From Minisyncoccota bacterium (GTDB lineage Bacteria > Patescibacteriota > Minisyncoccia > Phycocordibacterales > UBA9973), in assembly GCA_035299545.1 (NCBI GenBank), contig DATGWJ010000021.1, positions 10,090 to 74,089 of the forward strand: DNA of 64,000 nucleotides, read 5' to 3'. Of the stretch, positions 51,393 through 60,556 are shown piece after piece (position 1 is the first letter of the stretch; each line of letters starts with the position of its first letter). Under the pieces are notes generated by a model. The model was not told the origin of the DNA and did not search any database. It saw only the letters and a program-made list of their open reading frames with translations. The position numbers and the translations under genes were made by a program.

Positions 51393-51704
51393 TTAATTAT
51401 TACACAAACAGCAACATAACCTTATCCACCACTTTTTCACCCCCTTTTTCAAAAAAGTTGCCTTCTCAATTTTGCCGTATTTTCCCCTTTTTTTGTATAC
51501 AACAAAGACTAAGTGTAAGTCCTTCTTACATTTTCTGATCTTTGTGATAAAGCTACCTTCACACTCCCAAAGAGGTCTGGACACTCCATCAGAGCAAAGC
51601 ATATCGCCACGAGCAGTTTTCTCGGAAGATTCTTCGCTGATGACTTTATTAGTATACGAATCATTCGTATAGACAAACCATGTGATATTTCTTTCCCTTC
51701 CCAT
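51393..51704 (-). CDS. hypothetical Cys-containing small protein (array gene f)
   Basis: Preceded by conserved promoter/leader module f. Confidence 0.4.
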   Translation of the reverse strand: MGRERNITWFVYTNDSYTNKVISEESSEKTARGDMLCSDGVSRPLWECEGSFITKIRKCKKDLHLVFVVYKKRGKYGKIEKATFLKKGVKKWWIRLCCCLCNN

Positions 51705-51736
51705 TTTTGTGTTTTTTAGAATTTACAATTTTCTTT

Positions 51737-51765
51737 ACATTACTTCTTGTGGAGCATATTGTCAA
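51737..51765 (-). promoter_or_regulatory. promoter module f: TTGACA-17 nt-TAATGT plus conserved leader
   Basis: Minus-strand read: TTGACAatatgctccacaagaagTAATGTaaagaaaattgtaaattctaaaaaacacaaaATG. Confidence 0.55.
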
Positions 51766-51805
51766 ATGCCGTTTAATTATGATTTAAATATGTTATTATA
51801 AATAT

Positions 51806-52705
51806 ATGAATTTCGAGAACCAAACAATCACTTTCAAACCTAAGCCCCTTTTCGAGGATGTAGAACTTCAAAAGCGACTTCTCTTAAAGAAGCAGGAACT
51901 TGTAGATAAATATAGACCCAAGGAGTCTACTTTTACAGATATCTATCCTGAATCAGAAATAAAAGCCGACTTGGAAGAAATTGAAAAGATTAAATCGTCG
52001 TTCGATAAAGGAGATGAGAGTAATGAGTATCTTAAAAATATTTCTTCTATATATGAGGGAGTTATTGCAGATCAGATTGGAGCAAATGCATGGTTCGGTG
52101 ATAATTGTGAATCCATTGCAACATCCGAATACGATGATATTAAAAATGGCGTTGACGTTGTAACTATTTTCAAAGAAGACCAAGACAAGCACTACCTCGG
52201 TCTAGGTGTAGATGTAACATTTGCTTCAGATAAAAAAGTTCTCGAGAAAAAGTTGGAAAGTATAAAACAATGTATTAGAACAATGTCTCTACCCTCTCTT
52301 AAATATTTCCAAGATCCAGAGACAGAGGAACATAAAAAGATTTTCTTACCGAAAGTCATTATTGGCTCACGATTGTCTTCTGCTGAAAAGCTTATACAAC
52401 TTTGGGGAAGTAAAGATGTAGATAAGAACAAGAAGCTAGCAGAGCACCCTGTCTCTTCGAAGATAATTATGGAATCACTTGCTCAGTTAAAATATTTTTA
52501 TGATTACGCCATGCATTTGTCAGACAATGATCCAATTCATCATAATAAAGATGAATACAGAAAAATTGCTATAGGTTATGGCAAGATGTACAACATATTT
52601 GTAGATATCTACCAAGCCAAGAAAGACACTATAAACACTAACTTGAATGAAATTTCTGATGATATCGTCTACGAAACTATTTGTGAGTATACCAATAAAA
52701 CTTAA
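51806..52705 (+). CDS. hypothetical protein (299 aa)
   Basis: ORF only; acidic, no motif recognised. Confidence 0.5.
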   Translation: MNFENQTITFKPKPLFEDVELQKRLLLKKQELVDKYRPKESTFTDIYPESEIKADLEEIEKIKSSFDKGDESNEYLKNISSIYEGVIADQIGANAWFGDNCESIATSEYDDIKNGVDVVTIFKEDQDKHYLGLGVDVTFASDKKVLEKKLESIKQCIRTMSLPSLKYFQDPETEEHKKIFLPKVIIGSRLSSAEKLIQLWGSKDVDKNKKLAEHPVSSKIIMESLAQLKYFYDYAMHLSDNDPIHHNKDEYRKIAIGYGKMYNIFVDIYQAKKDTINTNLNEISDDIVYETICEYTNKT

Positions 52706-52712
52706 TTAAATT

Positions 52713-53231
52713 ATGGTTCATAGAATTCTTCCTCTAAAATTCTTTTATCGCAATACAAAGATAATAGCGAAGGAGCTGTTAGGAAAATATCTAGTTCGTA
52801 AATCAAAAGGAAAAAATTTGGCTTTTATGATAACAGACGTAGAAGTCTATGACGGCTTTAATGATTTAGCTTCTCATGCATCAAAGAAAAGAACCCCTCG
52901 AAATGAAGTAATGTTTCAATCCGGAGGCAGATGGTATATTTATTTTGTTTATGGAATGCACAGTATGCTAAATATCGTTACTCGCGAGAAGGATTACCCT
53001 GCTGCTATTTTAATACGAGGATTAGAAGGAATATCGGGACCAGGCAAGGTGACTAAAATACTAGGCATAGATAAGTCGCTCAATAAACTACCCGCGAATA
53101 GAAAATCTGGACTTTGGATTGAAGATCGCGGGATTCACATATCACCCAAAAGTATAAAAAAATCTCCACGAATAGGCATTAATTTCGCTGGCAAAATTTG
53201 GGCAACCAAACCCCTACGATACTATATATAA
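52713..53231 (+). CDS. mpg: DNA-3-methyladenine glycosylase (Mpg/AAG family)
   Basis: AKELLGKYLV, DVEVYDGFNDLASHA, GGRWYIYFVYGMHSMLNIV, AAILIRGLE, GPGKVTKILGI. Confidence 0.8.
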   Translation: MVHRILPLKFFYRNTKIIAKELLGKYLVRKSKGKNLAFMITDVEVYDGFNDLASHASKKRTPRNEVMFQSGGRWYIYFVYGMHSMLNIVTREKDYPAAILIRGLEGISGPGKVTKILGIDKSLNKLPANRKSGLWIEDRGIHISPKSIKKSPRIGINFAGKIWATKPLRYYI

Positions 53232-53232
53232 G

Positions 53233-53275
53233 AAAAAACCCGAACTTCCAAGAAGTTCGGGTTTTAATAATTTTG
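53233..53275. terminator. intrinsic terminator AAAACCCGAACTTCCAAGAAGTTCGGGTTTT
   Basis: Perfect stem plus T run after mpg. Confidence 0.7.
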
Positions 53276-53712
53276 CTTAATTGAGGCTCTGCTTCCTCTA
53301 GGCATCTCCATTTGTAATATTAAACGGGGACAAACTTACTCGGCGTTGTTTTATTTGTGTAGGCCGAGAAACTAGGCAAAATACATTGCATTAATTAAAG
53401 AACTGCACGTCAGGGTGGTAGATTCATAGATGCTTCATTTTTAGGTAAACATCCGCACTAAAACCCAAAGGCGATTTTATGGTGTGTATACTAGCACACC
53501 GTAATTATTTATGCAATAGAACAATACTAGTGGGTTCCATTCTCCGATATTCATATGTTTCTGCGGCGTCACGTCGTAATAGCACACTTAAGACCCAGTT
53601 AACTTAGTAGCCTCCATTTTACGGTTTCCGTCGGAAAGGTTACTGACCCTATATCCTTTAGTTCGACTAGTATTGTTTTGTCTTATTATTAAATTAGCAT
53701 TTATTAAAACAA
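53276..53712. ncRNA. 437-nt ORF-free, GC-enriched region between two terminators (candidate structured RNA; strand unknown)
   Basis: No ORF of 60 aa or more. Long-range palindromic pairing AACAATACTAGT(53519-53530)/ACTAGTATTGTT(53659-53670). Local hairpins GGTGTGTATACTAGCACACC, TCGGC...GCCGA. Ends at terminator AAAGGCCTGCTCATAGGAGTAAGGCCTTT. Confidence 0.25.
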
Positions 53713-53729
53713 AAATAAAGGCCTTACTC

Positions 53730-59081: not shown

Positions 59082-59320
59082 AACTGTAATTTTTTAGGCT
59101 TCTAGCCGTTGTTGTACCATTGCTCATTTCCCGAAGCTGGAGCTAAAACTAGTAGTTATAGCTAAAAAATTCCAATCAAATTAGAAGCTTTTAACTATAA
59201 CCACCTTATAAAATAAAACAAATTTTTGTGAATGAATTTTTCTTTTATAATACAATCTTAAACTTAAAATGTCAAGGAAAAGAAAAAGCTACCCTGTTAT
59301 AAGGATAGCTTTAAATTTTT

Positions 59321-59788
59321 TCATAGAGTTTCTACTGCATCACTAATCAGTTGAGCAAGCTTTGAATAATATTCGTCCACTTCCTCAAGTTCAGTAAAAA
59401 AACAAGGTTCATAGATGATTATAGTTCCTTTTGCTGTGAGCATTGCGTTCATACCAAGTTCCCTTTTGAGGTCTGTACGAAAATCAGTTCTATAAATCAC
59501 AGCCTGACCATTCACAGCAATAGTTATGCCATATTCCACACAAGTACCACTGTCTGCATCCGCACCATCTGAGTTGCCAACCACTACTTTTTTTCGATCT
59601 TTGCAGGAATTAATACACTCCTTAACAATTCCCTTTATATCAAAATGGTCACCCCTCCAATGTTTTAAGGCTTCTCTTTGAGGAAGTATGACTGGATGTC
59701 CACGAAGTTTTAGATGTTTCTCGAGGTACAAATTGTGCAGTCTTTCACCTGCATTAAATAAACCACCTGCAAGATATATATCTTTCAT
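59321..59788 (-). CDS. nucleoside 2-deoxyribosyltransferase-family protein (array gene b)
   Basis: MKDIYLAGGLFNAGE start, typical of the Nuc_deoxyrib_tr family. Confidence 0.65.
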   Translation of the reverse strand: MKDIYLAGGLFNAGERLHNLYLEKHLKLRGHPVILPQREALKHWRGDHFDIKGIVKECINSCKDRKKVVVGNSDGADADSGTCVEYGITIAVNGQAVIYRTDFRTDLKRELGMNAMLTAKGTIIIYEPCFFTELEEVDEYYSKLAQLISDAVETL

Positions 59789-59820
59789 ATATTTAATTTT
59801 TAGATTAGTACTTTTTCTTC

Positions 59821-59849
59821 AGATTACTTTTTCTATATTGTAAAGTCAA
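59821..59849 (-). promoter_or_regulatory. promoter module b: TTGACT-17 nt-TAATCT plus conserved leader
   Basis: TTGACTttacaatatagaaaaagTAATCTgaagaaaaagtactaatctaaaaattaaatATG. Preceded by terminator AAAAAGAGTTGATTTGTAATCAACTCTTTTT. Confidence 0.55.
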
Positions 59850-59892
59850 GGAAAAGAAAAAGAGTTGATTACAAATCAACTCTTTTTAATTT

Positions 59893-60162
59893 TTACCATC
59901 TTCTCGCGTGTTTTTCGTTGCCACACGGGCCTCCGCAATCAGGGCAATAATTCCCAGAACCTATCCCGAAAATCGGACTAATTGGATTCCGTAACATTGT
60001 TCTTCTCCTTCTTGGTAAGGATTTTGATCTTTCGATTTCTGCTAATGCTAATAGAAGGGCTTTCCTTGGATTCCTTTCCCCTTTGTATTGGAGTGAAGGA
60101 TTTTTGCCACGCTTTCTTTGTTTGTTAGCATGCGATACGACAAATTGAGCAGTTATTTCCAT
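59893..60162 (-). CDS. hypothetical Arg/Lys-rich small protein with a CPDCGGPC motif; GC-richer than background
   Basis: ORF 12 nt downstream of gene a, probably co-transcribed. Confidence 0.35.
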   Translation of the reverse strand: MEITAQFVVSHANKQRKRGKNPSLQYKGERNPRKALLLALAEIERSKSLPRRRRTMLRNPISPIFGIGSGNYCPDCGGPCGNEKHARRW

Positions 60163-60174
60163 TTCGGATAAATT

Positions 60175-60504
60175 TTAGTAATTAAGCCACTTAAGAAACT
60201 CCTTATCTCTGTCATTGGTGACAATTCTTACAGAATAGATAGAGGTTCTTGTTTCAAGGAAAATATTACCATCTTCTTCTCCAAATGAATATATTTCACT
60301 TGATACATGAGCTCCTCCCCATTCTTTGAAGTGTACGGCATGTCCAACTTCACAATCTTGTGAAAGAGTACCACTTCTTTTTTCTCCTGGTTTAAATTCT
60401 GAAGATTCTCCAGTTTTAACTTCAATTTTTTCCAGAATAATCTTTGTACCAGTCCTAAGATTTTTAGGATCTGTACCCCATTTAATATTAGCTGTTTTAT
60501 TCAT
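60175..60504 (-). CDS. hypothetical protein (array gene a)
   Basis: Preceded by promoter module a. Confidence 0.45.
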   Translation of the reverse strand: MNKTANIKWGTDPKNLRTGTKIILEKIEVKTGESSEFKPGEKRSGTLSQDCEVGHAVHFKEWGGAHVSSEIYSFGEEDGNIFLETRTSIYSVRIVTNDRDKEFLKWLNY

Positions 60505-60527
60505 ATTTTAGAATTTACGTTTTCTTC

Positions 60528-60556
60528 ACATTACATTTTTCAACTTGCAAAGTCAA
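60528..60556 (-). promoter_or_regulatory. promoter module a: TTGACT-17 nt-TAATGT plus conserved leader
   Basis: TTGACTttgcaagttgaaaaatgTAATGTgaagaaaacgtaaattctaaaatATG. Preceded by terminator AAAAGGCCGTTTCTGATAAATCAGACGGCCTTTT. Confidence 0.55.

Follow-up and report, generated by a model that had tools for sequence, protein, structure and literature searches.

Why would six unrelated small genes in the chromosome of a Minisyncoccota bacterium each begin behind the same promoter and the same short leader? The question is raised by a stretch of 64,000 nucleotides (contig DATGWJ010000021.1, positions 10,090 to 74,089), which we call the window; all coordinates below are positions in it. A preliminary description of positions 51,393 to 60,556 had reported the repeated promoter-leader module and had offered two explanations for it, a regulon under a single factor or a system of mobile, integron-like cassettes. 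To our knowledge, the Paceibacterota (Parcubacteria) are uncultivated, their transcriptional regulation is almost wholly undescribed and very few regulators can be recognised in them. On balance, we think it somewhat probable that the six repeats are a lineage-specific expression module of low-GC Paceibacterota, that they mark a co-expressed, regulon-type set of genes, likely with a factor of its own, and that they are not mobile cassettes.

The module is a sequence of about 60 nt, a promoter followed by a short leader, and it precedes each of six minus-strand ATGs, at 51704, 54329, 55719, 57064, 59788 and 60504. Its consensus is TTGAC(a/t), a 17-nt spacer ending in AAAA(a/t)G, TAAT(C/G)T, (A/G)AAGAAAA, nGTAc, about 4 nt, T(C/T)T and AAAA; the purine run after the -10 box is GAAGAAAA, and GTAc..TCTAAAA comes after it. 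The copies in the window are the following.

Module copy 1, 51705-51765, minus strand: TTGACA, 17 nt, TAATGT, aAAGAAAAttGTAAATTCTAAAAAA; ATG at 51704, 61 nt from -35 to ATG; nhmmer E = 9e-12; without an upstream T-tract.
Module copy 2, 54330-54390, minus strand: TTGCCA, 17 nt, TAATGT, gAAGGAAAttGTAACTCTTAAAT; nhmmer E = 1.2e-12; terminator 54399-54420 and a T-tract directly upstream.
Module copy 3, 55720-55780, minus strand: TTGACT, 17 nt, TAGTGT, aGGAGAAAAGTACAACTCTAAAAAT; nhmmer E = 8e-13.
Module copy 4, 57065-57125, minus strand: TTGACT, 17 nt, TAATCT, tAAGAAAAAGTACTAATCTAAAAAT; nhmmer E = 4e-12; CCTTTTCTTTTTA upstream, where a clear hairpin was not seen.
Module copy 5, 59789-59849, minus strand: TTGACT, 17 nt, TAATCT, gAAGAAAAAGTACTAATCTAAAAAT; nhmmer E = 2e-14; terminator 59857-59887 and CTTTTCTTTTCC upstream.
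Module copy 6, 60505-60556, minus strand: TTGACT, 17 nt, TAATGT, gAAGAAAAcGTAAATTCTAAAAT; leader 9 nt shorter; nhmmer E = 9e-13; a hairpin and CTTTTCTTTTCC upstream (about 60557-60600).
Degenerate seventh copy, 59223-59283, minus strand: TTTTTCTTTTCC, TTGACA, 17 nt, TATTAT, AAAAGAAAAATTCATTCACAAAAAT; nhmmer E = 0.011.

Together with seven copies from other organisms, the six window copies form a gap-free alignment of 52 columns that starts at the -35 box and reaches about +17. Counted from the first T of that box, the ATG is exactly 61 nt away in all but copy 6, where it is 9 nt closer. An nhmmer model built from the six finds each of them with E = 2e-14 to 9e-12; the next match in the window is the degenerate seventh copy (E = 0.011), all remaining matches have E > 0.1, and there is no copy in the other ~55 kb. 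The core pattern TTG[AC]C-N17-GTA[AG][TC][CG]T, searched on both strands, occurs at these six sites alone in the 64 kb, and the probability that six random sites would fall within 8.85 kb is 2.5e-4. When a hidden Markov model (HMM) is trained only on the seven copies from outside the window, its six best matches in the window are these same sites (E = 6e-7 to 0.08), and the one that follows has E = 0.97. It could be argued that the likeness reflects chance, low complexity or a generic promoter consensus, given the AT-rich genome and the runs of A and of T in the module. This idea has a negligible probability in view of nhmmer E values of 1e-11 to 1e-14, of a reduced pattern with 11 matches against 1.7 expected from shuffles, and of the retrieval by the externally trained model of six sites that have no counterpart in the other 55 kb. 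Alignment, nhmmer, pattern and external HMM therefore agree with the preliminary description that the same promoter and leader stand before all six ATGs. Its picture of an array needs some qualification: the six copies are present, but monocistronic genes with ordinary, leaderless-type promoters are interleaved with them.

The module is also distinct from the promoter that dominates the window. The window belongs to a cellular chromosome with a GC content of ~34%, and its genes include those for GyrA, BipA, HisRS, PriA, MreB, FtsA, FtsZ, RRF, S1, Pth, Def and Fmt, as well as three tRNAs. A comparison of the upstream regions of all its open reading frames (ORFs) indicates that the dominant promoter is TGnTATAAT, located 6-9 nt upstream of the ATG in about 40% of the genes. 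Of the 65 genes of at least 80 aa, 25 show a -10-like box at a distance of 4-13 nt from the ATG, and a Shine-Dalgarno-like motif is found in only three. Because the extended -10 box abuts the ATG, we infer that the housekeeping genes have leaderless mRNAs, and initiation in this genome seems for the most part to be leaderless and independent of Shine-Dalgarno motifs. The lack of a Shine-Dalgarno motif from the module leader, correctly reported before, is consequently a trait of the whole genome and not of this leader. As checked within the 64-kb window, the possibility that the module is simply the housekeeping consensus was rejected, with housekeeping promoters of the TGnTATAAT type abutting the ATG and a module model that has no further copies.

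The anatomy of the module is that of a promoter with additional conserved positions. TTGAC is complete at -35 in 11 of the 13 copies (one has TTGCC and one TTTAC), and all 13 have G-13, T-12, A-11, C or G at -8, T-7, and AAA at -1 to +2. Thus, the features of a sigma-70-type promoter are present: a TTGACA-like -35 box, 17-nt spacing, T-12, A-11 and T-7. The -10 box (TAATGT or TAATCT) agrees with TATAAT at three of six positions, and for this reason a generic sigma-70 promoter scan omits the module. The G at -13 and the C or G at -8 are invariant in a genome that is 66% AT, and because they are invariant yet not part of the consensus, something besides the primary sigma factor would be expected to read the module DNA. 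The conserved parts are both promoter boxes, the 3' half of the spacer between them, positions -6 to +2, which are all purines, and positions +4 to +17; together they span about one RNA polymerase footprint. Other -35/-10 promoters with leaders in the window, for example those upstream of 5394-6425, 24787 and 25769, are without these extra conserved blocks. The sequence AAAAnGTA is present twice, 16 bp apart, as a loose direct repeat (-18 to -11 and -2 to +6), and this would be compatible with a regulator.

Transcription presumably starts in the invariant AAA, ~7 nt past the -10 box, which predicts a 5' untranslated region (UTR) of 17 nt in copy 6 and of ~26 nt in the other five. From this predicted start, the first ~17 transcribed bases are conserved across organisms. 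The distance to the ATG is less constant: in addition to copy 6, it differs in the seventh copy and in one partial copy from a metagenome contig (L012), both of which have a longer one. The conserved block thus keeps its position relative to the promoter, not relative to the ATG.

Related genomes provide a reason to consider the module a maintained signal. A pattern scan of metagenome contigs found nine loci, of which L009 and L011 have clear modules and L012 and L010 partial ones. The L011 module precedes an orthologue of the NT5C-type deoxyribonucleotidase encoded behind copy 2, and the L009 module precedes an unrelated 95-aa gene amid housekeeping genes. NT5C orthologues with 54-60% identity have the module directly upstream in four low-GC relatives, L011, L014, L017 and L020, and the gene context differs, the orthologue being located after FtsH in L014 and L017 and after a secretin gene in L020. 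Likewise, the closest orthologue (77% identity; L024, 32% GC) of the nucleoside 2-deoxyribosyltransferase (NDT) encoded behind copy 5 carries the module; a second module is present at a neighboring unrelated 114-aa gene, and the genes adjoining NDT are not those of the window. The NDT loci of higher-GC Parcubacteria (L025-L027 and L029; 43-52% GC) are without the module and have GGAG-type Shine-Dalgarno leaders instead. L020 also has a remote homologue (28% identity) of the 109-aa protein encoded behind copy 6, and it follows a similar promoter, TTGACA-17-TAGAAT with AAGGAAA. In orthologues with ~55% protein identity neutral sites are saturated, and so the retained 52-nt block must be under purifying selection. 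Because the module is kept at orthologues independently of the gene neighborhood, it would be a regulatory signal maintained by selection.

The promoter sub-types track the genes, NT5C copies having TTGACAA... and NDT and its neighbors TTGACTTT.... Copies 4 and 5 (W57064 and W59788) are each identical to L011 at 32 of 37 positions, compared to a family mean of 23.7, and this likeness across genes and organisms argues for selection on the sequence rather than shared descent alone. Furthermore, L014 and L017 have arrays of four to five small monocistronic orphan genes, each preceded by a terminator and by a variant of the module (CCCC-TTGCC, 16 nt, TGcTAATAT, GAAGAAAAA), which would make insulated small-gene arrays with a common promoter and leader a trait of the lineage. 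Outside these relatives, the representative genome collection gave one pattern match, in a Flavobacteriaceae metagenome-assembled genome (MAG), which we presume to be due to chance, and the viral contigs gave no match for two module patterns.

How might such a module work? We predict that each copy is a complete, -35-dependent promoter with a short, unstructured, A-rich 5' UTR, and that the member genes are transcribed singly, each insulated by a terminator of its own. The module would mark a separate, co-expressed set consisting of two deoxynucleoside-salvage enzymes (NT5C and NDT) and several small orphan proteins. Positions -18 to -13, -8 and -6 to +17, which are not normally specified by the primary sigma factor, would be the most likely recognition surface of a dedicated factor. 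This factor might be an alternative or group-2-like sigma factor, or else a regulator whose DNA-binding site overlaps with the core promoter and the transcript start. The 5' UTR may help as an initiation signal for leadered mRNAs, and the six copies would cluster because the 9-kb stretch is a neighborhood of accessory genes. The regulon proposed in the preliminary description is thus supported in outline, as a non-housekeeping module that is kept at NT5C (L011, L014, L017 and L020) and at NDT (L024) whatever the neighbors. None of the operator consensus sequences that we know for NrdR, CodY, DeoR, Fur, CtsR and PmrA fits the module.

Several points weigh against such a regulon. The start of transcription, the activity of the promoter, co-expression and co-regulation, and the identity of the factor are all predictions from sequence. 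The 64-kb window yielded no candidate for a regulator or an alternative sigma factor; its sole sigma-related gene encodes a protein with Sigma70_r4 and HARE-HTH domains (5394-6425). Our data cover this window and fragments of relatives, and many further copies may be present in the remaining genome. The two L024 copies have an identical 9-nt spacer, compared to a family mean of 3.1 of 9, which points to copying and not to selection. Finally, very strong constitutive activity together with an optimal leader could by itself account for the additional conserved positions.

This last idea deserves attention, even though we consider it rather unlikely. It proposes a strong constitutive promoter of the primary sigma factor with an optimised leader and without a dedicated regulator, the best that the lineage has for genes with a 5' UTR, the copies resembling each other by optimisation and shared descent. 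Its features would be a -35 box that fully matches the consensus, a spacer of 17 nt, a tract rich in T further upstream in the role of an UP element, initiation at A, and an A-rich, unstructured leader for S1-dependent, Shine-Dalgarno-independent initiation. The canonical -35 box and spacing fit, as do T-12, A-11 and T-7, the unstructured, A-rich leaders, the ribosomal protein S1 gene in the window, the genome-wide disuse of Shine-Dalgarno motifs and, from general knowledge, a conserved span close to the RNA polymerase footprint. However, optimisation should drive the -10 box to TATAAT, the sequence in the housekeeping promoters of this genome, yet -8 is C or G and -13 is G in all 13 copies; in addition, other leadered promoters of the window, such as the three named above, do not have the extra conserved blocks. 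An alternative that is clearly improbable places the signal in the RNA: the transcribed part, AAAnGUAcnAAUCUAAAA, would be a cis-regulatory leader, and the binding of the ribosome, a small RNA or a protein to it would control translation or stability. Positions +1 to +17 are indeed kept across genes and organisms, the distance from the -35 box to the ATG is the same in five of six copies, and leadered mRNAs need an initiation signal in an otherwise leaderless genome. But the leaders fold no better than shuffled sequences (z -0.9 to +1.6), so they are unstructured, and Rfam has nothing similar to them, whether at its gathering threshold or at E <= 1; on these results a riboswitch or other structured leader was ruled out. 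The conservation also reaches upstream of the predicted start, and at -20 to -13 it is therefore not acting at the RNA level; the variable ATG distance of copy 6, L012 and the seventh copy does not favor an RNA leader either.

The other proposal of the preliminary description was a modular cassette system. In such a system, units of promoter-leader, gene and terminator would be spread or exchanged as a block, by a site-specific recombinase (as in integrons or rAID-1) or by homologous recombination between the repeated modules, with gain and loss of cassettes. Six or seven repeats of 52-60 nt in the same orientation do flank unrelated orphan genes, and NDT has different neighbors in the window and in L024. 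Some of the sequences look copied: the terminators 54394-54432 and 56801-56839 have 90% identity across 39 nt, the L024 pair has an identical spacer, and copies 4 and 5 have perfect blocks of 14 nt and 24 nt in common, with 36 of 37 positions identical in columns 16-52 and 38 of 39 in columns 16-54. However, the free spacers of copies 4 and 5 differ, so that selection fits better than recent duplication; the case for gene conversion between these two is only suggestive, and occasional gene conversion or promoter copying is plausible. Pfam finds no integrase or recombinase, including IntI and XerD-type enzymes, in essentially all window ORFs of at least 100 aa, and on this basis an integron or rAID element was rejected. 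The unit boundaries have no common attC-like site with R and L boxes; the hairpins are intrinsic terminators with a GC stem and a T-tract, and the stems are mostly unlike one another. An integron would have promoterless cassettes under a single Pc, and here each gene has its own promoter-like module and terminator. The GC content is not skewed, PADLOC gives no defence match, PHROG gives generic nucleotide-metabolism families alone, the phage collection has no DNA match for the region and the module pattern is absent from the viral contigs. These searches also ruled out a prophage or phage early region and a defence island. A mobile repeat like a miniature inverted-repeat transposable element (MITE) or a repetitive extragenic palindrome (REP) was excluded too, the copies having one orientation, ending 2-10 nt before the ATG, showing no visible inverted termini and occurring at orthologues elsewhere. 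Recent tandem duplication of whole units was rejected, as the similarity stops at the ATG and at the T-tract and the coding sequences are unrelated. In addition, the promoters follow NT5C and NDT in two stable sub-types, as vertical inheritance predicts, so they were apparently inherited with these genes. Integron-like cassettes are therefore not supported, and block exchange of any kind is very improbable. We would give a little more room, while still calling it quite unlikely, to the idea that terminator tail, promoter and leader form a reusable scaffold of reduced candidate phyla radiation (CPR) genomes. Homologous recombination or gene conversion, with the copies in the same orientation as its substrates, would equip orphan genes that were recently acquired or had recently arisen with a promoter and leader joined precisely at the ATG, and would drive gain and loss of the genes located between copies. 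If so, a lineage-specific regulon would in addition function like an integron, without a recombinase.

The genes behind the module and their terminators are listed below.

Gene 1, 51393-51704, minus strand: 103-aa orphan with a Cys-rich C-terminus (CCCLC); no Pfam family.
Gene 1 terminator hairpin, 51368-51393, minus strand: tail TTTTCTTTTTGTTTT.
Gene 2, 53730-54329, minus strand: NT5C-type 5'(3')-deoxyribonucleotidase, HAD fold, 199 aa; PF06941, 8e-17.
Gene 2 terminator hairpin, about 53705-53757, minus strand: overlaps the stop codon.
Gene 3, 55066-55719, minus strand: 217-aa orphan with N-terminal transmembrane segments.
Gene 3 terminator hairpin, 55023-55061, minus strand.
Gene 4, 56840-57064, minus strand: 74-aa orphan with a CxxC...CxxC zinc-ribbon-like motif.
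Gene 4 terminator, 56805-56828, minus strand.
Gene 5, 59321-59788, minus strand: NDT, 155 aa; PF05014, 5.5e-10.
Gene 5 terminator, 59285-59312, minus strand.
Gene 6, 60175-60504, minus strand: 109-aa orphan.
ORF after gene 6, 59893-60162, minus strand: 89 aa, basic, CxxC, 42% GC; precedes terminator 59857-59887.

Some of what was said about these genes holds better than the rest. The NT5C and NDT assignments are borne out by Pfam. The four other proteins (genes 1, 3, 4 and 6) have no Pfam family and no PDB sequence match, and a homology search with the 109-aa protein of gene 6 retrieved itself alone. A hairpin and T-tract closes each of the six units, as proposed; nevertheless, the terminator of gene 6 is located past a second ORF (59893-60162), and because of this ORF the unit may be bicistronic. 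The gene after gene 3 (54436-54915) has its own promoter, TTGACT-17-TATACT. The shared upstream block, CTTTTCTTTTCC, turns out to be the T-tail of the preceding gene's terminator, and an interrupted TTTTCTTTT tail follows most terminators of the region. Nor are the genes atypical in composition, as had been suggested for some of them: the six have a GC content of 33-39%, compared to ~34% for the window.

Terminator sequences are reused within the module region. The identity between the terminators at 54394-54432 and 56801-56839 includes the loop, and a third, similar one is present at 56560-56590. The NCBI locus tags run from VK153_02305 (NT5C) to VK153_02355 (the 109-aa gene) and, if tags step by 5, leave room for one gene fewer than we counted; therefore, either 59893-60162 or a 61-aa ORF at 56589-56774 may be unannotated at NCBI.

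Other features of the module region also deserve mention. A leader of ~140 nt (59082-59222, minus strand) separates the degenerate seventh copy from the gene at 58479-59081, and it forms a long, near-perfect hairpin with a minimum free energy of -39.4 kcal/mol (z = -4.1). This leader hairpin has no match in Rfam; an attenuator, or cis regulation of another kind, is a possible function. A stretch of 465 nt without ORFs (53235-53700), apparently richer in GC than the sequence around it, lies between the terminator of NT5C and a bidirectional one at 53235-53265. It has no Rfam match at E <= 1 and a fold z of -1.7, and it may be an unannotated non-coding RNA.

Elsewhere in the window, a plus-strand promoter at 23727-23763 is partly like the module (TTGACA, 17 nt, TAATCT, CTAGAAAAG). 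The gene at 5394-6425 (minus strand) has its own promoter, TTGACT-17-TATTAT, and a long leader. Its 343-aa product combines sigma-70 region 4 with HARE-HTH, a domain of the RNA polymerase delta subunit, and is without sigma region 2; the probable target of this unusual protein is the polymerase or the -35 box. At 21238-22644 (minus strand, neighbors to about 24600), a gene for a reverse transcriptase (RVT_1) is located beside tRNA-Val/Ser and several orphans, and this locus is possibly a diversity-generating retroelement. A GC-rich intergenic repeat is present at 17967-17983, 19054-19070, 31405-31421 (minus strand) and 37625-37641, with a reverse copy near 37550-37600. It consists of an identical 17-mer, GCGCCCACACCTACTCA, in four copies, where none is expected by chance; the copies inspected have an adjacent hairpin, CCGAATCC..GGATTCGG, and the repeat looks REP-like within an AT-rich genome.

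Two observations were made on the loci from other organisms. L020 has three tandem paralogues at 1867-4213 (57-65% identity), each with a nearly identical upstream region of ~100 nt that contains GGAGGT and differs from the module. At 10584-11660 of L026, a locus fetched via an NDT homologue labelled Candidatus Paceibacterota, there is a TFIIB-like protein (Zn_Ribbon_TF and TFIIB), which suggests that this contig is archaeal or mis-binned.

What would the module mean for the biology of these organisms? If it only marks a strong constitutive promoter, the finding is an ordinary one. The genome appears to have a two-tier architecture, in which housekeeping genes with extended -10 boxes are leaderless and module genes are -35-dependent and leadered. 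The presence of salvage enzymes and orphans in one set hints that the orphans take part in the same physiological programme. A 52-nt signature that is found across genomes would also be a handle: with it, the co-expressed set could be defined in MAGs, phylogenetic profiling could point to the sigma factor or regulator responsible, and metatranscriptomes could be interpreted.

In the literature collection searched, we found no paper on promoter classes in Patescibacteria or Parcubacteria, and the motif of the module appears to be undescribed; its kind is familiar. The early promoters of phages T7 and T5 are near-identical families that are conserved across the polymerase footprint, including the initial transcribed region. 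The module resembles them in this footprint-wide conservation and in serving many short transcription units that have their own terminators, but it is located in a cellular chromosome (GyrA, FtsZ, MreB and HisRS), with no matches to phage proteins or phage DNA.

Integrons and the rAID-1 loci of Bacteroidales (bioRxiv 10.1101/471110) also have small unrelated genes in the same orientation and repetitive intergenic sequences. Here, in contrast, there is no IntI or XerD-type recombinase, attC-like site or GC skew, each gene has its own promoter and terminator, and two of the members are conserved, vertically inherited metabolic genes. Furthermore, unlike that of rAID-1, the cargo has no immunity or defence match in Pfam, PADLOC or PHROG, and its GC content (33-39%) is near the 34% of the window. 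Among the hallmarks of rAID-1, only the repetitive intergenic sequences recur here.

The erp loci of Borrelia burgdorferi, with their 'upstream homology box' (PMC10016077; Marconi et al. 1996, PMC178399), are among the nearest analogues, together with the Legionella regulons below; diverse genes there follow a conserved promoter and 5' region. The erp loci are co-expressed from a conserved promoter, operator and 5' region, and recombination has put one promoter and leader before diverse coding sequences (PMC10016077; PMC178399). They occupy allelic sites on multiple cp32 prophage plasmids, have a leader peptide in common and are regulated by BpaB, BpuR and EbfC (PMC10016077; PMC178399). The window copies differ in that they are chromosomal, arranged in tandem and end at the ATG.

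The PmrA and CpxR effector regulons of Legionella (PMC2701608, PMC12239595) resemble the locus in that unrelated accessory genes have one conserved element whose distance to the -10 box is fixed. The conserved span of the module is unusually long (-35 to about +17) and, as judged from the DNA, would include the transcript start; and whereas the members of classical regulons are scattered, six of them are present here within 9 kb. As in Legionella-type and alternative-sigma regulons, the motif is kept at orthologues in related species and could be used to predict further members.

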